Below are positions 10,602 through 19,227 of a DNA stretch of 19,316 nt, piece by piece (the first letter of the stretch is position 1; each line of letters begins with the position of its first letter). The position numbers and the translations under genes are program-made. The DNA comes from an uncultured archaeon (GTDB lineage: Archaea; Aenigmatarchaeota; Aenigmatarchaeia; QMZP01; JAFGSV01): contig CAZLFZ010000024.1 in assembly GCA_964559215.1 (NCBI GenBank), positions 1-19,316 of the forward strand, in the 5' to 3' direction. The notes below the pieces were generated by a model. That model was not told the origin of the DNA, searched no databases, and was given only the letters and a program-made list of their open reading frames with translations.

Positions 10602-11459
10602 CTATCCTTTATCACTACCCGATATCTCACGCCTTTCCATTAACCTTGTAAACGGTTCGAAGATGAGCTCCGGTTTCTTGCCCCTCAGTATGATGTTCGC
10701 GTACAGGTGCGGACGTATGCGTATCTTCTTTTTGCAGTTGCCGGCCAGTCCCAGTTCCAGCCACCCGATTGAATCGAAATCGATTTCCCTCGGCAGCCTG
10801 AAACTGGCATCGGTGCCTGAGGCCCTCTTCGGCTCAACGTTCAGGATGGACATGGTCGCCGGCAGCAGCACCCTCTTCCCTTTTTTCAGATTTATTGCCA
10901 GGGAGGCGGAGCTGACCGAAACCGGTGAAAAGCTGTCGTTTACTATCTCGTACCTGATACGCACGTTCCGGATTTTTTTAATCTGATCCAGCCTTTCAAG
11001 TGCTCCGTACAGGTTCACCATCCTTATCCTGTCCGAGTAAAGCTGGCATCCGAGGATCCTGACGAAATCTATTCTGGGAACGTACTGGTCCAGCATCCTT
11101 TTCTGGAATTTGAGCTGCACGTAGATGACAACTATCAGAACGAGCAATAACAGCGCAATCAGGGAATTGAGGCCATTTGCATTCCCGGCGCTCACGGCCA
11201 TGATGAAGGCGAGCACTATTATCCCTGAGAAAAGCAGGGCCTCCGTATGCCTTGCCAGCTTTTTCATTCCGTACCACGCATCCTCGGCCGCATAGCGCGC
11301 TGACCGCCTCAGCCTGCTGAATTTGTGCCGGATGGGGTAAAAGCGGTCCCTGGTGCTCGGCAGTTTCTTGGCGTTGTGCCTGAGACCGTCATGCACCCTT
11401 CTTAACGCGTTCAGGATTTTCTCCCTGATGGACAGCCGCCGTCTTAAAGGGAAAAACAT
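10602..11459 (-). CDS. membrane protein of unknown function (Arg-rich N-terminus, 2 TM helices, ~150-aa C-terminal domain)
   Basis: The 285-aa ORF has TM helices at ALLFSGIIVLAFIMAVSAG and LNSLIALLLLVLIVVIYVQL. It lies on the same strand, directly upstream of the pilin pair. Confidence 0.45.
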   Translation of the reverse strand: MFFPLRRRLSIREKILNALRRVHDGLRHNAKKLPSTRDRFYPIRHKFSRLRRSARYAAEDAWYGMKKLARHTEALLFSGIIVLAFIMAVSAGNANGLNSLIALLLLVLIVVIYVQLKFQKRMLDQYVPRIDFVRILGCQLYSDRIRMVNLYGALERLDQIKKIRNVRIRYEIVNDSFSPVSVSSASLAINLKKGKRVLLPATMSILNVEPKRASGTDASFRLPREIDFDSIGWLELGLAGNCKKKIRIRPHLYANIILRGKKPELIFEPFTRLMERREISGSDKG

Positions 11460-11500
11460 AATATATTATTGCTCTTTTCATGTATTAATTATGATTAATT

Positions 11501-12310
11501 ATGTTGATTGTCTATTCCCCGCAATGCCTTGAATACGAAATCCCAGGCCATCCCGAAAGCCCGGCCCGGGTGCTAAGGATACACGATTTTCTCCTCGAAC
11601 ACGGGTTCAGATTCATTCCAGCGGAACCGGCGACGAAGCATGATGTCCTGCTTGTGCACACGGCGGAGCACTTTGCCAAGGTTGAAAGCAGGGATTACGG
11701 TGATATCGAAACACCTCCGATAGACATAAAATATCCCCTGCTTGCAGCCGGAGTAACGATAAAAGCCGCGGAAAATCTGGGGTTTGCCCTCACCAGGCCC
11801 CCGGGGCACCATGCAGGCCGGAATTCCCTGGGGGGCTTCTGCTACTTCAACAATGTTGCAATAGCGATAAAAAAACTCGGGAAGAAAACAGCGATTCTAG
11901 ATCTTGACACGCATCATGGAAACGGCAGCCAGGAGATATTCCTGGGTGATGAAAACGTCGTGTATGTCTCTCTGCACCAGTCGCCCCTTTATCCGATGAC
12001 TGGTTTGAGCTCGGAAAAGAACTGCCACAACTTCCCCATGTTTCCGGGCACGGACGAGAACACCTACCTGAAAACCTTGGAAAAGGCATCGGCGATCATT
12101 GGGAGGTTCAAACCGGAACTGTTGGCCGTTTCGATGGGGTTCGACACGTTCAAGGGAGACCCTCTGGCAGGGCAGCAGGTGACAGAAAAGGGATACGAAA
12201 GGATAGGGGAAATGGTCGGGGAGCTGAACCTGCCCACCTTCATAGCCCTGGAGGGCGGCTATTCGGATAAAATCGGTGAACTCTGTTATAATTTCTTGCG
12301 CCATTTCTGA
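11501..12310 (+). CDS. histone deacetylase / acetoin-utilisation (AcuC) superfamily deacetylase
   Basis: DLDTHHGNGSQEIF (DxDxHHGNG) and the catalytic-loop context PPGHHAG.....GFCYFNNVA are HDAC-family hallmarks. At 269 aa it is shorter than typical family members. Confidence 0.75.
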   Translation: MLIVYSPQCLEYEIPGHPESPARVLRIHDFLLEHGFRFIPAEPATKHDVLLVHTAEHFAKVESRDYGDIETPPIDIKYPLLAAGVTIKAAENLGFALTRPPGHHAGRNSLGGFCYFNNVAIAIKKLGKKTAILDLDTHHGNGSQEIFLGDENVVYVSLHQSPLYPMTGLSSEKNCHNFPMFPGTDENTYLKTLEKASAIIGRFKPELLAVSMGFDTFKGDPLAGQQVTEKGYERIGEMVGELNLPTFIALEGGYSDKIGELCYNFLRHF

Positions 12311-13031: not shown

Positions 13032-14108
13032 CTAGTCCTCTTTCCAGAAGAAGGTGTCCGTGCCCTTTATGTGTGACAGGAACTTGCAGGACTTCAGTAC
13101 CCCATGGACATCATGCTCATTGAATCCGAAGTCCTTCGCCACGGCCTTTTCAGCCACCACGAGCCTGCCCGATACCAGGTCGGCCAGGCGCTTCAACTTG
13201 GCATTGAAGTTATACGGCTCCTTTTTCTGGTTGAACCAGCCTGAATAGCCACGCGTGATCGGGTCGTTGATGTTGAAATAAAGATTCCCTTTCCTGGGCT
13301 CCACCATGTAAAGCGAGAAGCCCTTCTCAGAGAAGCGGTTAACGAAATTGACCAGGTCCAGCTTCGCCCCGTCGCTGACCAGCACAATCAGCTTGTATCC
13401 CTTATATTGCCTGGACAGCTTGTGCAGGTACGCCGTCAGGGAGTTCGCGTCCAGTTCAGCGGTTTCGCCAAATGATGTCACGATCACGGACGCCTTGACT
13501 TTGGACATGAACCACCTTTTTACCTTGATGGAGATCACGAACTCGCCGTTCTTTTTCTCCATCTTCGCATTGGCCTTGGACAGGAACTCCTTGGGCGTCC
13601 AGTCTATGGGACCAACCTTCCCGAGCCTCTTGTCCAGCCACCTGGCGTATTCACTGGTGTAGAATATCAGCTTTGCCATTCTCGAATCATCGGACTCTTC
13701 CAGCATTGCTCCCAGGTCCACCTTTATATCCTCTTCTTTGAAGAATTCCTTTTTCTTCGCCTCTTCCTCAGGGTGTCCGTAAACAGCGCGCGAGTGGTCC
13801 TTGCAGAACCTGTATTTCTTGACGTCCCAGCATTCCCTGCACAGCAGCTTGTCACAGCCAGACCACAGGCATTTCCCGGCCCAGTCTGTCCGTGAGCCTA
13901 TCTTCTTGTTACACCTTGAGCAGAACTCCATTTTATTCTCGGACAAGATTTCGTCGAGCTTGGCCTTTGCCTCAAGTTCCCTTTTCTCCACGTCCATCTC
14001 AAGCTCTTTTCTGGCCATCTCTATTTCTGACCCGAGCTTTCTCCCTTCGTTGTCAGCCTCTCCTCCCATTTCAGCCTCCAAGGGCATGCCTTCTTCTCTT
14101 GAAAACAA
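13032..14108 (-). CDS. Cys-rich zinc-finger protein with acidic coiled-coil N-terminus and an uncharacterised C-terminal domain
   Basis: The Cys cluster is FCSRCNKK..13..CLWSGCDKLLCRECW..FCKDH (C2-C2-C2-CH spacing). The C-terminal part IVLVSDGAKLD...E..K-like could be a restriction-endonuclease-like fold. The gene overlaps the upstream gene by 38 bp. Confidence 0.6.
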   Translation of the reverse strand: MFSREEGMPLEAEMGGEADNEGRKLGSEIEMARKELEMDVEKRELEAKAKLDEILSENKMEFCSRCNKKIGSRTDWAGKCLWSGCDKLLCRECWDVKKYRFCKDHSRAVYGHPEEEAKKKEFFKEEDIKVDLGAMLEESDDSRMAKLIFYTSEYARWLDKRLGKVGPIDWTPKEFLSKANAKMEKKNGEFVISIKVKRWFMSKVKASVIVTSFGETAELDANSLTAYLHKLSRQYKGYKLIVLVSDGAKLDLVNFVNRFSEKGFSLYMVEPRKGNLYFNINDPITRGYSGWFNQKKEPYNFNAKLKRLADLVSGRLVVAEKAVAKDFGFNEHDVHGVLKSCKFLSHIKGTDTFFWKED

Positions 14109-14571
14109 CCAGCAAATCGGATACGTATTTCTTGAGCAGGGCGCATCGTCTGACCATGGAGCCCCCCTTCCCGTGCATCACATTCTCCTGCATTTGCTCG
14201 AGTATTTTTGTCAGCTTGCGGCTGTTCCGCATGATGGTGACGTCGGCCTTCATAAGCCTGACAAATTTTTTGTAATCGGCCTTTTCGCCCCATACCAGAG
14301 GCAGCCCCAGTTCCAACAAGAAAACGTCAAGCCATTGCATAACGTCCTCGAGCGCCCCGGCATTGTCAAAATCCTCTTCCAGGTACGCGGCCTCTATCAT
14401 GGGAAAAAGGAAGTCCCTGGACTTGTTTATATCATCGGCGATCATGCGCCTGAATTGCTCATCGGTGCTCTCCGCCTTCTTTGGATCCTTGTAGCCGTAT
14501 CCTGGAACGGCCTTTTCCATCTCCTTGAATTCAGGCTTGCCTTCTCCTTTCGCTTTAACCCATTCGCTCAT
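14071..14571 (-). CDS. small acidic alpha-helical protein, paralogue of the adjacent 173-aa protein
   Basis: The 166-aa protein carries EEDFDNAGALEDVMQWLDVF, which resembles DAAEDAWDDVDSLVDMIE in its neighbour. The start is 1 nt after the upstream stop. Confidence 0.5.
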   Translation of the reverse strand: MSEWVKAKGEGKPEFKEMEKAVPGYGYKDPKKAESTDEQFRRMIADDINKSRDFLFPMIEAAYLEEDFDNAGALEDVMQWLDVFLLELGLPLVWGEKADYKKFVRLMKADVTIMRNSRKLTKILEQMQENVMHGKGGSMVRRCALLKKYVSDLLVVFKRRRHALGG

Positions 14572-14572
14572 C

Positions 14573-15094
14573 TCATTCCCCCGTGATTATTTTCTCCCTG
14601 GCATCCAGCAATGAGCTTATCCCATCGCTGTATTTTTTAATTTTGCCCAGGTTTTTAATAAAGTGCCTTTCCTTCCCTTTTTCGAGCAGCGCCCTGTAGA
14701 GCAGGTACACGGTCCTTTTCATGTCTTTCACTTCCATGACCAGTTGCCTGTCCCTTCTCAGTATGTTCTGGATGTCAGACTCTATCCTTTCTTTGCACTC
14801 CTCGCAGTATCGCTTGTTGCCTTTTAGCTTGGTGGTTTTGCTGTTTTCGATCATGTCAACGAGGGAGTCCACGTCATCCCAGGCATCCTCTGCTGCATCG
14901 CTGAGCTTGTCCCTCTGCAACTCGTAGCTCACCTGGACCACATGAAACAGGTAGTCCTTTATTTTTTTCATCTCGGCTATAAGCAATTCCCTTACCAGCT
15001 TGTCCGTTTTCACGATGTTGGACACGCTGGAATAGCTGTACTCAGGGACAAGGCTCTCCATCCTTTCCATGACATCAAGCATGTTCTCTTCCAT
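14573..15094 (-). CDS. small acidic alpha-helical protein (173 aa), function unknown
   Basis: The ORF is densely packed, with a 1-nt gap to the SPFH gene stop. It has a predicted helical/coiled-coil composition and a CEEC pair. Confidence 0.5.
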   Translation of the reverse strand: MEENMLDVMERMESLVPEYSYSSVSNIVKTDKLVRELLIAEMKKIKDYLFHVVQVSYELQRDKLSDAAEDAWDDVDSLVDMIENSKTTKLKGNKRYCEECKERIESDIQNILRRDRQLVMEVKDMKRTVYLLYRALLEKGKERHFIKNLGKIKKYSDGISSLLDAREKIITGE

Positions 15095-15095
15095 T

Positions 15096-16193
15096 TCACT
15101 TACCCGGCTTTCCAGACTTCTCCATCCTGACTTCCAGCTCAGTCTTTTGCTCCTCGTAGCGCTGCATGAGTTTTTTGAACGTTCCCTTGTCTATCTTCCT
15201 GTTTAAGAATTTTCGCTCGGTCGCTTTGATGATACGCTGCAGTTCGTCATACCTTTTTTCCAGTTTGCCCTTTTCGGCGGTGGGGAATGCCCCTTTCAGC
15301 GCATCAAGTCCAAGCTTTTTCCTCTCGGAGCCCCTGACGATTCGTTGCTTGTCATGTATCTCTTTTAGCTTGAGCGCTTCCATGGCGTCGCGCATGTCGT
15401 GCTGGGTTTCCTCCGATTCGATCTCCATTTCCGCCTCCCTTTTGACCCTTTCCCTTTCGAGCTCGTCCAGGACCTGCTCCCTGCTCTCAACGGTGCCCTT
15501 TATTTCCCCGACTTCCCTCTCATGAATCGCCTTCTCGGTTTCGAGTTCGAGTTCGGTCTCGGCCTTTTCCGTTTCCTCACGTATCACGCCCCGCTTTCTC
15601 AGGTAATCCTGGTACTCACCGGGCAGCACGAACTGCACCGAGAACGAGAGCAACTCAAGGCCACTAGGTTCGAGCTTCTTCCTGAGCCCGACCTCGGCGG
15701 ATACTTGGATCTCACGTCCCGTCTTCCTGTCTCCCTGCAACTGGTCTATGCTTTTTTTCTTTACGACCGGCGCCATGACAGATGTAACGATTTCGCTTTG
15801 CAGCTCTGACCATAGGTCCTCGTTAGTGATGACATCCTTCCTGCTCATCGTGGCGGAGCTCAGCTTATCCGGGTCAGCCACCACGAACTTCATCTCTACG
15901 GCAGCGATGATCTCCTTGTCATCACGTGTCCACAGGTCTTTCACCTCCCTCCTGATTACGTGAGGGGACTTGTCCACGAAAATGATGTTCCTGGCGGAAC
16001 CGGAGAACAAGCCACCCACCTTGTGTGTCCCGTGTTCGAATGTTCTCACGACCTTGCCTTCCTCCTCAAGGAGAGCCACTTCCCCGTCCAGAACATGGAT
16101 TTTCTTGCTTAGCAGGCCACCTACCTGGAAGGAGTTGATTCTCTGCGCCACGACTGCATCAGACCTCTCCCATTTCTTGGCCATGTTTATCAT
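15096..16193 (-). CDS. SPFH/band-7 (flotillin/stomatin-like) domain protein with long E/K-rich coiled-coil C-terminus
   Basis: The SPFH-like core is VIRREVKDLWTRDDKEIIAAVEMKFVVADPDKL...LQGDRKTGREIQ...GLELLSFSVQFVLP. This is followed by an ETEKAETELELETEKA...REAEMEIESEE flotillin-type coiled coil. There is no N-terminal TM helix. The likely start is M4 (16184), with TTTAAAATA about 25 nt upstream. Confidence 0.7.
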   Translation of the reverse strand: MINMAKKWERSDAVVAQRINSFQVGGLLSKKIHVLDGEVALLEEEGKVVRTFEHGTHKVGGLFSGSARNIIFVDKSPHVIRREVKDLWTRDDKEIIAAVEMKFVVADPDKLSSATMSRKDVITNEDLWSELQSEIVTSVMAPVVKKKSIDQLQGDRKTGREIQVSAEVGLRKKLEPSGLELLSFSVQFVLPGEYQDYLRKRGVIREETEKAETELELETEKAIHEREVGEIKGTVESREQVLDELERERVKREAEMEIESEETQHDMRDAMEALKLKEIHDKQRIVRGSERKKLGLDALKGAFPTAEKGKLEKRYDELQRIIKATERKFLNRKIDKGTFKKLMQRYEEQKTELEVRMEKSGKPGK

Positions 16194-16249: not shown

Positions 16250-17977
16250 TCAAACATCTGTCCTCTGAACGACAGAGTCACTGATTTTCGTTTTCTTCTC
16301 CGTGACCTCCCCATCCTCGCCGCCGCTTGCTATCTTCGACCTCTGGACTATGGAATCGACTATGTTGACTATCTTCTTTATCTCCACTTTTTCGACCTCG
16401 CTTGCATCGGTTTCGGTCTTTATGGTGTACCGGATTATATTGGCCACCCTCTCCAGGGTCGGAACCAGGGTCTCCCTGTTCTCCGAGCATAGTTTAAGGA
16501 TGAGATGAACGAACCCCTCGTCTTCCTTGATGACTATGGTCAGCATGTAATGGATTTCATCCAGCCTGAAAGAATAGAGCAGCATCCTCTCGTGCTCGAA
16601 CTCGTGCTTTGCCACCAGCGCCATGTCATGGCAGTTCTCCTCAACGTGATGCAGCACGACGTCCAGGCCAGCTCCCCTCAGGGTGTACCCCCGCTGCTGG
16701 TTCCACTCCTTTTTGCTCAGGGACACGTAATAGCTCTCGCTAAGCGGGTAGGCCGTTATGCTGCTGTCAAAGTGCCTCTTTTCCTGCCTGAATTCCTCGC
16801 GTTTGGCGAACACCTTGCGCTCCGGGTGTTCATGTTCCAGCACCTCAGCTGTTATGTCGGGCACCCTGGCTTCGTATTCTATCCCGTTCTCATCAAGCAT
16901 AACGATTCTGCCGCTTGCGATTTTCTGCATACCGAGGATGCTTGGCTTTATCTTCCAATCCGTTCCCTTTTCCTCACCAGGGGCTATTTCTTCGAAGGCG
17001 CTCGGGCTTGACTGCACCGCCGTTATCTGGTCCGCGAAGTCAACATCCAGTTTTATATCGTGCACCGATTTTGAGGAAAGATTCTTTACAAGGATTACCA
17101 GTTCGCTGGTCTTGTTTATGATGGGATCCGGGCTTGTGTACGAGTTTACCTGTATCCTGGGCCTGACGAGTACCCTTGCCGGCTCCAGTTCCATGTCAAT
17201 GGTGTTACCCTTTGCATTCTTCCAGGTGATGAAATTGTAAGGTGACAGCATCCGGCCAAGCCTACCCGTGGTGTCGTACGAGAAGATTTTGACCTCTCCG
17301 GGCTTGAGGCCTGCTATCTCGTGCGTCAGTTTCGCGTCCCTGTCCCCGATCGTGATGTTCTTGATTACGCCCCTGCTATGGTTTTCTATCACCACTTCGA
17401 ACCTGACAGGGTCGTATTCCACCACCTCGCTCTTTTCCGCGTACTGGTCCACCGTGGGATGCGACACGAGGTGCTTTAGCCTGTCGATCTCGAGTTCCGT
17501 TTCATCGTCCCTTTCAATGTCGTATGCCTTTCCATAGAATTTGATGGCCTTTTCCAGGTCTCCGCCATCCTTGCACGCTTGGCCAGCTATCTGGTAGCAC
17601 CACTTCGCTGCATAGTTGCTCTTGGAGAGAGTGAAACACTCTGCCCCCTTGATGGCGTAGTCGACAGCGTTTTTGTAGTCGTTCTTATCTTTTGATGCTA
17701 TGGCAGCGGACCTGTAAGACCAGCCCGCGTTGAACAGCTTCCCATCCCTTTCGCTGTTGCCTGCGGCGAGCAGCGCGTACTTTGCGCTGTCGTCCCATTT
17801 CCTGGCCCTTCTCGCCAGGACAGACGCCATCTGGTACAGCCAGGCGGTCCTCGCCCTGTCCCCCTTTTTCGAACTCGAGTCAATTTTTTTCAGTAATTTG
17901 ACGATTGATTTCTCGTATTCTCCCCTTTTCAAAGGGGCCGATTCCGGCTTTTCGGCCAGCCAGTCAAAAATCGACAT
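16250..17977 (-). CDS. multidomain protein: N-terminal TPR/SNAP-like helical repeats, central beta-sandwich region, C-terminal alpha/beta domain (possibly roadblock/LC7-like)
   Basis: Residues 40-170 show repeated A/Y/W-spaced helices (WLYQMASVLARRARKWDDSAKYALLAAG...AIKFYGKAYDIE). The middle region has alternating hydrophobic beta-strands. No P-loop is present. Confidence 0.65.
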   Translation of the reverse strand: MSIFDWLAEKPESAPLKRGEYEKSIVKLLKKIDSSSKKGDRARTAWLYQMASVLARRARKWDDSAKYALLAAGNSERDGKLFNAGWSYRSAAIASKDKNDYKNAVDYAIKGAECFTLSKSNYAAKWCYQIAGQACKDGGDLEKAIKFYGKAYDIERDDETELEIDRLKHLVSHPTVDQYAEKSEVVEYDPVRFEVVIENHSRGVIKNITIGDRDAKLTHEIAGLKPGEVKIFSYDTTGRLGRMLSPYNFITWKNAKGNTIDMELEPARVLVRPRIQVNSYTSPDPIINKTSELVILVKNLSSKSVHDIKLDVDFADQITAVQSSPSAFEEIAPGEEKGTDWKIKPSILGMQKIASGRIVMLDENGIEYEARVPDITAEVLEHEHPERKVFAKREEFRQEKRHFDSSITAYPLSESYYVSLSKKEWNQQRGYTLRGAGLDVVLHHVEENCHDMALVAKHEFEHERMLLYSFRLDEIHYMLTIVIKEDEGFVHLILKLCSENRETLVPTLERVANIIRYTIKTETDASEVEKVEIKKIVNIVDSIVQRSKIASGGEDGEVTEKKTKISDSVVQRTDV

Positions 17978-18597: not shown

Positions 18598-19227
18598 TCA
18601 AATCTTCTTTATCTTCCCTGGCGTTGGCTCGTAGCATATCCCCTCGCCCAGCAGCTCGTTGATGACGTTTTCCAGCTCTTCTTCAGGGATCCCAGCCTTT
18701 TCCACCAGTTCGCTGTACTTGATTCCGTCTTTGCTGCCTTCTATGATGGACAGCATCTTACGCCTGAGCTGGTCTTCATCTATCTTGGCAGGTTCCGATG
18801 CCTTCTCTTCCTCCCCGGCTTCTTCCTTTTTTTCCAGGCGCGCCAGGATTTCGAGCCTCAGCATGCTCTCCTGATCAGGGCCGACTGGCAGGATGATCTC
18901 CGGAACGATGTATATGTCGCCCTCGTACTCCCGGACTTTTCCTATAAGGTTCACAAGGTCTCCAACGTTGGTTTCCACGATAAGTCCAGTCTCCCTCCAC
19001 AGCTTCCCCTGGATCGTGGCCGTGGAATCGTCCACCGTGATGGATGCGAAGTTGCCGTCCTCCGAAACGAATTTTGTGACGATGGTGCCGATTATCCTGG
19101 CCCTGGATATGTTTTCCTTGCGTGGGGTTATCACAAAACTTGGCTCCATGCCTTCTCGTTTGACCCATTCCCCGCTCACCAGGTCCACAATCCTCACTTT
19201 GATGGCTGTCTGTCTTTGCACAGGCAT
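18598..19227 (-). CDS. OB-fold nucleic-acid-binding protein with C-terminal winged-helix (RPA2/Stn1-like architecture)
   Basis: An OB-like beta-barrel segment (IKVRIVDL...ARIIGTIVTKF...ITVDDSTATIQGKLW...GDLVNLIGKV) is followed by an acidic linker and a wH-like C-terminus (KMLSIIEGSKDGIKYSELVEKAGIPEEELENVINELL). Confidence 0.5.
   Translation of the reverse strand: MPVQRQTAIKVRIVDLVSGEWVKREGMEPSFVITPRKENISRARIIGTIVTKFVSEDGNFASITVDDSTATIQGKLWRETGLIVETNVGDLVNLIGKVREYEGDIYIVPEIILPVGPDQESMLRLEILARLEKKEEAGEEEKASEPAKIDEDQLRRKMLSIIEGSKDGIKYSELVEKAGIPEEELENVINELLGEGICYEPTPGKIKKI

Follow-up and report, generated by a model that had tools for sequence, protein, structure and literature searches.

What does an SPFH protein do when it has no membrane anchor and none of its customary partners? 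SPFH proteins are universal membrane organisers whose function is largely set by their partners, and here a soluble SPFH protein is tied to three new protein families. The locus lies in a 19,316-nucleotide (nt) stretch of DNA from an uncultured archaeon (GenBank assembly GCA_964559215.1, contig CAZLFZ010000024.1), hereafter the window, to whose positions all coordinates refer. An earlier note on this DNA had described a tightly coupled four-gene operon for an SPFH protein, two small paralogues and a Cys-rich zinc-finger protein, and had suggested a scaffolding or a defence-like role. Four consecutive open reading frames (ORFs) indeed span 13032-16193 on the minus strand, and we name them g1 to g4 in the order of transcription. 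We propose, at a probability of about one half, that they encode a core SPFH scaffold complex, vertically inherited in the Aenigmarchaeota, tiny symbiotic archaea of the DPANN group. It would serve in membrane organisation, repair or remodelling, or in protein sorting. The operon genes and p575, the gene upstream of them, are the following, with lengths in amino acids (aa) and isoelectric points as pI.

15096-16184, minus strand: g1, soluble protein of the SPFH/Band 7 type, 362 aa, or 365 aa from the first ATG at 16193 (Pfam Band_7)
15546-16088, minus strand: SPFH domain of g1, about residues 33-213 (Pfam Band_7)
15099-15545, minus strand: highly charged helical tail of g1, residues 214-362 (charge count)
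14573-15094, minus strand: g2, four-helix-bundle protein of 173 aa, pI 5.9, with invariant H51, C97 and C100
14071-14571, minus strand: g3, paralogue of g2, 166 aa, pI 8.9, without the CxxC (BLASTP and hhalign)
13032-14069, minus strand: g4, multidomain protein of 345 aa (alignment and predicted structure)
16250-17977, minus strand: p575, accessory protein of 575 aa (Pfam in orthologues, PDB profile search)

The junctions between the four genes are extremely short. The window sequence reads TGA a ATG between g1 and g2 and TGA g ATG between g2 and g3, so that both of the 1-nt gaps claimed earlier are confirmed. A 38-bp overlap claimed for g3 and g4 proved to be an artefact of an ORF list that started g4 at the TTG at 14108. 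All 22 of the g4 homologues, of about 345 aa, start at the Met of the ATG at 14069, and a GGAGG lies just 5' of this codon. With the ATG at 14069 as the true start of g4, the third junction is TGA a ATG, and therefore all three are 1-nt gaps of the form TGAnATG. Across ten other genomes, after correction for an internal stop in locus L012, the g3-g4 gap is always 1 nt, the g2-g3 gap ranges from 0 to 4 nt and the g1-g2 gap from -4 to +13 nt. This conservation supports the idea of a co-translated unit, and, judged from the sequence, g1 to g4 are translationally coupled and act as one unit. The four genes are real, but the number four needs revision. The unit probably comprises five genes in this clade, because p575 is found directly upstream of g1 wherever sequence exists (8 genome and 8 metagenome loci), and three in its minimal form.

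The first gene encodes a divergent SPFH protein. Pfam Band_7 (PF01145) matches g1 with 38.4 bits (cut-off 23.6) and an E-value of 1.7e-9 over profile positions 5-173 of 176, and the g1 orthologue of locus L023 reaches 43.1 bits. The family is divergent, as several other orthologues escape detection by Band_7. The N-terminal membrane anchor usual for such proteins is lacking, as had been claimed: the Kyte-Doolittle maximum over 19-residue windows is only 0.94 and no hydrophobic segment is found. The long charged tail described behind the SPFH domain is likewise present, with 43-57% charged residues between positions 200 and 362. Sequence and profile searches against the PDB revealed no close solved structure of g1. 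The N-terminus itself is conserved, the motif MAxKWxRSEAVVAQ being kept across the g1 orthologues.

The second and third genes encode the two paralogues of about 170 aa. BLASTP aligns g2 with g3 at an E-value of 1e-7, and hhalign gives a probability of 96.8% and an E-value of 2.3e-10 over 147 columns, which covers the full length. They had been called acidic, which does not hold for the pair, as g3 is basic and g2 only mildly acidic. The predicted structure of g2 is a confident all-helical bundle with a pLDDT of 90.5, and 35 homologues of g2/g3 were found. Neither protein matches a family of Pfam, NCBIfam, PADLOC or PHROG beyond sub-threshold noise, sequence and profile searches against the PDB found nothing, and a Pfam scan at E-values up to 0.1 gave no match of g2 or g3 to Snf7 or PspA. 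The only invariant potential metal ligands in g2 are H51, C97 and C100, and none of them is kept in g3. This pattern suggests an incomplete metal site in g2, which might be completed by a partner subunit.

The genomic scan, made with one genome per species, recovered ten distinct loci, whose genomes are either those of Aenigmarchaeota or unclassified archaeal metagenome-assembled genomes (MAGs). By tblastn, the order RPA-like gene, p575, g1, g2, g3, g4, HDAC gene (opposite strand) and p285 is kept wherever sequence is available, and a metagenome scan from the SPFH side added nine close loci with p575 upstream and g2, g3 and g4 downstream as far as the contigs reach. Gene order is widely kept in this clade, and shared synteny by itself therefore counts for little. 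The adjacency could in principle be inherited among close relatives without any functional meaning, as the RPA-like, HDAC and p285 genes are also co-conserved around the cluster. However, the junctions of 0-4 nt are kept at 50% protein identity, and the trio of SPFH gene, small helical gene and g4-like gene occurs with unrelated flanks in L023 and L024 and in a rearranged form in another phylum (L016), so that mere inherited adjacency can be given next to no credence.

In L023 and L024, the first member of the trio is a Band_7 protein with the N-terminal motif of g1, aligned by hhalign at 100% and with 37% identity along its entire length. Next comes a single 165-aa helical gene (hhalign 99.4%), and then, overlapping by 4 nt, a g4-like gene. 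The flanking genes are unrelated to those of the window and encode a histone, aIF5B and a PHP protein. L023 thus represents the three-gene version, from which p575 is absent and in which one g2/g3-type gene stands in place of the two copies of the main Aenigmarchaeota clade. In the Thermoplasmatota MAG L016, five relevant genes form a tight same-strand array in rearranged order. They include a 179-aa g2/g3 homologue (hhalign 96.7%, E-value 4e-10), an SPFH protein of 476 aa that ends in a Zn ribbon (hhalign 86%, E-value 5e-6; Pfam Band_7 E-value 0.003) and a 425-aa g4-like protein (hhalign 95%), in addition to a 348-aa protein and a Zn-ribbon-TPR protein. The latter two were considered as p575 homologues and rejected, their likeness being that of generic TPR only. 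The recurrence of the trio with unrelated flanks and in rearranged form indicates a conserved functional linkage, which, on the present alignments, extends over three genomic contexts and at least two archaeal phyla. A search of gene neighbourhoods had been advised in the earlier note, and its result is positive outside the main clade as well; homology searches did not assign the partners to unrelated, well-characterised families.

SPFH-centred operons are of a known kind. Similar to the SPFH-NfeD operons of stomatin, flotillin and HflKC, the present operon combines a Band_7 domain and a helical oligomerisation region with dedicated partners. However, g1 contains neither a transmembrane helix nor a hairpin, the operon lacks an NfeD or ClpP-like partner, and the partner families are novel. 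No neighbour of g1 matches an NfeD or ClpP family in Pfam or NCBIfam, in agreement with the former statement that the partners are not NfeD proteins. The combination had also been called undescribed, and we found no description of SPFH, g2/g3 and g4 together in the literature searched, nor any curated library that holds the partners. Therefore, the partner set and the families of g2/g3, g4 and p575 are new to the libraries and literature searched.

The fourth gene encodes the most complex protein of the operon. Its predicted structure has a pLDDT of 77, mostly above 85 past residue 130, and the following parts can be distinguished.

Residues 5-45, minus strand: N-terminal long helix of g4
13794-13922, minus strand: binuclear C7H zinc finger of g4, residues 50-92
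Residues 97-125, minus strand: disordered linker of g4
13200-13691, minus strand: central alpha/beta domain of g4, residues 127-290
13035-13187, minus strand: C-terminal winged helix of g4, residues 295-345

The zinc-finger ligands C50, C53, C67, C72, C77, C80, C89 and H92 are invariant in 22 sequences and spaced as C-x2-C-x13-C-x4-C-x4-C-x2-C-x8-C-x2-H. The finger is therefore Cys-rich as had been reported, but the eight Cys of the reported C2-C2-C2-CH arrangement are in fact seven Cys and one His, as the eighth Cys, C328, is located in the C-terminal winged helix. The spacing points to a cross-brace of the RING/PHD/B-box type. No curated family matches the finger above its cut-off, the best being Prok-RING_4 (E-value 0.011, 16.1 bits where 27 are required) and B-box giving E-values of 0.35-4. 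The sole ZZ match, CEBP_ZZ with an E-value of 0.0088, belongs to the related finger-only protein P0147 and not to g4. As a whole, g4 has no family match in Pfam, NCBIfam, PADLOC or PHROG, and sequence and profile searches against the PDB found nothing.

The central domain appears weakly nuclease-like in the predicted structure. The catalytic D...(D/E)xK of PD-(D/E)xK enzymes is not conserved in the g4 family: the core family does retain an acidic residue where strand 2 begins, but its strand 3 reads K-x-K/R, and in the wider family nothing catalytic is conserved. A relocated acidic residue of the Cfr10I/NgoMIV type may be present. The winged-helix segment is near-neutral by our residue count. 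An alternative explanation is that the operon is a nucleic-acid module, in which g4 would bind or cut DNA or RNA or regulate transcription, and the SPFH and helical proteins would tether or regulate it, for example by holding the nucleoid to the membrane. We consider such a module unlikely and read the winged helix and the central domain as probable interaction modules, because the former is near-neutral and no catalytic motif is conserved.

An exhaustive profile search for g4 yielded 77 representatives. The core family members with an organism name are all Aenigmarchaeota, and finger-less relatives with long helical N-termini also occur, such as P0133 of the Thermoplasmatota; a metagenome scan with P0133 alone found nothing. 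The finger module is in addition fused to Peptidase_S8 subtilases, to CHAT proteases and to S8 together with a DisA-type DAC (P0125, P0136 and P0137), and is a mobile zinc-finger domain, RING-like by its ligand spacing. Distant relatives of 400-470 aa carry HTH_17 in addition to finger and central domain, two parts over which hhalign gives 98%. Such a protein is encoded by the first gene in L017 (1922-10346) and in L019 (2056-12456), and the genes that follow encode Snf7, Vps4 (MIT, AAA and Vps4_C), a second AAA ATPase, proteins of about 210 aa and large Ser/Thr kinases. The giant kinases of these two loci carry PQQ propellers and LysM, and a small PG_binding_1 protein is also encoded, with a serine recombinase nearby. 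The two loci may be bacterial ESCRT-III/Vps4 loci, one cluster member being annotated as an Anaerolineae bacterium.

The accessory protein p575 begins with a TPR/SNAP-like solenoid (about residues 1-175), followed by one or more Ig-like beta-sandwich regions (about 185-380) and a further C-terminal domain. In the orthologues, Pfam detects TPR_12 in 6 of 6, DUF11 in 4 of 6, and NEW3 and DUF7507 in 3 of 6 each. A PDB profile search returned consensus TPR proteins and gamma-SNAP, that is, TPR only, and the p575 of the window itself gave sub-threshold noise only in the Pfam, NCBIfam, PADLOC and PHROG scans. Its C-terminal tail contains a twin motif, DS[VI]VQR[ST], at 16337-16357 and 16259-16279 on the minus strand, the two copies being about 20 residues apart. 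The pair is invariant in every p575 orthologue and occurs in no other gene of the fetched loci, and the literature yielded no mention of DSVVQRS when searched for it. Possibly the pair acts as a short linear docking motif. The p575 orthologue of L011 (4151-5866) is interrupted by a single in-frame stop, at codon 344, with g1 to g4 intact downstream; the stop is either a sequencing error or the mark of a pseudogene.

As to how the complex is assembled, how it associates with the membrane and what it does, we infer the following arrangement. The tail of g1 would drive oligomerisation into a ring or cage, as in HflK/C, flotillin, stomatin and the vault shoulder and cap, an architecture of SPFH domain and helical tail that fits the scaffolding role suggested before. 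The proteins g2 and g3 would form a heteromeric helical adaptor, and g4 would act as a modular, multivalent protein-protein adaptor connecting the scaffold with partners or with the membrane. The winged helix of g4 would bind protein, as in ESCRT-II and CdvB, rather than DNA. The TPR and Ig-like regions of p575 might provide a clade-specific arm for the recognition of cargo or partners. The role of the complex would be analogous to that of YdjI/SamI, which couples PspA to the membrane, and to that of the 'Meth_adaptin' SPFH protein, with no neighbouring ESCRT-III/Vps4 pair.

The first of these analogues belongs to the Bacillus subtilis operon pspA-ydjGHI (samGHI). YdjI is an anchor-less SPFH protein with a C-terminal zinc finger, which recruits PspA and depends on partner proteins for its own access to the membrane (PMC8581546). 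Both systems are operons with an anchor-less SPFH protein, a zinc finger and an all-helical partner. However, g2 and g3 are not detectably PspA or ESCRT-III, the archaeal operon has no equivalents of the membrane-integral YdjG and YdjH, its zinc finger is carried by the separate multidomain g4, and the host is archaeal rather than bacterial. The second analogue comes from archaeal ESCRT loci, which encode an SPFH protein with coiled coil and Zn ribbon ('Meth_adaptin'), Ig proteins of the adaptin-appendage type, kinases and, in the 'Main' clade, arCOG09748 (Makarova et al. 2024, PMC11188069). In arCOG09748, a helical N-terminus is followed by a coiled coil, then by a globular centre without structural match and last by a C-terminal winged helix like that of Vps22 and CdvB (PMC11188069), and the domain order of g4 is the same when the two are compared by domain description, not by sequence. 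These loci also resemble the present operon in their SPFH and coiled-coil component, with a Zn ribbon fused to the SPFH protein in L016, in an accessory with TPR and Ig-like regions (p575), and in that distant g4 relatives head loci for Snf7, Vps4 and kinases. On the other hand, the operon lacks Vps4 and ESCRT-III, and g2/g3 have no counterpart named in PMC11188069.

A number of observations weigh against the proposed membrane scaffold. The operon encodes no membrane anchor or membrane protein, so that the link to the membrane is assumed. The structure search with g2/g3 returned generic fold matches. Identity of g2/g3 with ESCRT-III was rejected at the sequence level, as a profile of 74 g2/g3 sequences gave an hhalign probability below 1% against the Snf7 protein of L019 and two proteins neighbouring Vps4. 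Neither Vps4, ESCRT-III nor PspA is encoded in the 19.3-kb window or within 8 kb on either side of ten orthologous loci, and according to two reviews DPANN archaea are without ESCRT-III/Vps4. The basic character of g4 overall, its nuclease-like and winged-helix elements and the HTH_17 of its distant relatives would suit the nucleic-acid module considered above. Finally, g4-like genes stand alone in L002, L020, L025 and L026, and the distantly g1-like SPFH genes of L035 and L038 have no such partners beside them. The linkage is thus not obligate. Genes of partner size do lie in L035 and L038, and hhalign shows them to be unrelated to g2-g4.

A related view would take the operon as an ESCRT-independent analogue for remodelling or sorting, or as the relic of an ancestral archaeal layer of ESCRT adaptors, in DPANN cells that lack ESCRT. 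Here g1 would form a soluble SPFH cage, g2/g3 would replace ESCRT-III or PspA, g4 would be an adaptor related to those of ESCRT loci, and p575, with its solenoid and Ig-like regions, would be an 'adaptin-like' arm. We regard this version as tentative and rather on the unlikely side.

The absence of an anchor from every subunit also bears on a soluble cage of the vault or encapsulin kind, in which g1 would build a closed cytoplasmic shell without membrane and g2, g3 and g4 would be cap, cargo or loading subunits. The soluble SPFH-fold domain of g1 followed by a long helix mirrors the shoulder and cap-helix of the vault protein MVP; closed cup-shaped oligomers are the general rule among SPFH proteins (PMC11188069), and MVP-like proteins with an SPFH domain are reported from all archaeal groups, DPANN included, in a 2026 survey (PMC13607799). 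However, Pfam matches g1 to Band_7 only and the MVP repeat was not detected in it, dedicated operon partners are not a feature of vaults, and a membrane-free SPFH cage has no precedent outside them. A closed shell of this kind is thus judged a poor candidate, and the membrane-associated scaffold is preferred.

The genomic setting speaks to the defence-like role that had been suggested. In an anti-virus or conflict system, the SPFH scaffold would sense infection, with g4 or its partners as effector or adaptor. The fusion of the g4 finger module to CHAT, subtilisin-like proteases and a DAC cyclase, architectures typical of conflict systems, would agree with this, as would the serine recombinase adjoining the HTH_17 relative in L019. 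However, matches in PADLOC 2.0 are at chance level only (E-values of at least 0.004), no enzymatic effector is evident and no relatives occur on viral contigs. In each genome of the clade, the cluster occupies the same fixed locus between the housekeeping RPA-like and HDAC genes, it diverges in parallel with its neighbours, and its genes are retained in genomes below 1 Mb. We therefore regard defence as improbable and take the operon for a core gene set and not a defence island, because the locus is fixed and its divergence tracks the neighbouring genes; that such reduced genomes have kept these genes speaks for an important role in the cell. The GC content of the operon is the same as that of its flanks.

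If the favoured scaffold reading holds, the operon bears on membrane repair, vesiculation or host contact in ESCRT-less DPANN cells. The homology of the g4 family ties it to Snf7/Vps4/kinase loci and thereby opens a way to study how the link between SPFH scaffolds and ESCRT-type adaptors arose. The analysis also defines three new protein families (g2/g3, g4 and p575) and one new mobile zinc-finger module.

The signals between p575 and g1 were read from the window sequence.

16213-16205, minus strand: TATA-like box TTTAAAATA, centred about 25 nt 5' of the conserved g1 start at 16184
16247-16242 and 16237-16232, minus strand: two T6 tracts that immediately follow the stop of p575, candidate archaeal oligo-T terminator

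Both the TATA box before the SPFH gene and the oligo-T tracts between it and the 575-aa gene had been pointed out earlier and are present. Translation of g1 could begin at either of two in-frame ATGs, 16193 or 16184. The upstream MIxM is missing from 3 of 8 g1 orthologues and MA(K)KW from the second ATG is common to all, and therefore the start is likely at 16184, giving MAKKW... and 362 aa. A spacing of about 25 nt is typical of an archaeal TATA box ahead of a leaderless start. In orthologous intergenic regions, an AT-rich box lies at a similar distance 5' of the MA(K)KW start, its positions having been read by eye. A leaderless start of g1 would fit this arrangement, and the T tracts may serve as a terminator. 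Leaderless expression is not universal, since the L023 orthologue has GGTG 5 nt ahead of its ATG.

A natural deletion of p575 and the N-terminus of g1 in CP070804.1 was considered and rejected, as it is an assembly gap of 100 N. The run of N, at 6161-6260 of L001 and found again in L009, lies in the CP070804.1 'chromosome' and stands in the place of p575 and the first 124 or so codons of g1. As a consequence, the gene caller reports a truncated SPFH protein of 235 aa.

The flanks of the operon, at 10602-12310 and 18598-19227 of the window, encode an HDAC-family deacetylase on the opposite strand, p285, and an RPA-like protein with OB fold and winged helix. These genes are co-syntenic in all Aenigmarchaeota loci and absent from L023 and L016, and for this reason they are probably not part of the SPFH system. 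The p285 protein is a basic membrane protein (pI 10.8) with a strongly hydrophobic segment and would represent the nearest candidate for a membrane anchor. ARAGORN calls no tRNA in the window; at its edge, at 2-185 on the minus strand, Rfam matches a full-length one with 51.8 bits over model positions 1-71. The match extends across 184 nt, which implies an intron of about 110 nt.

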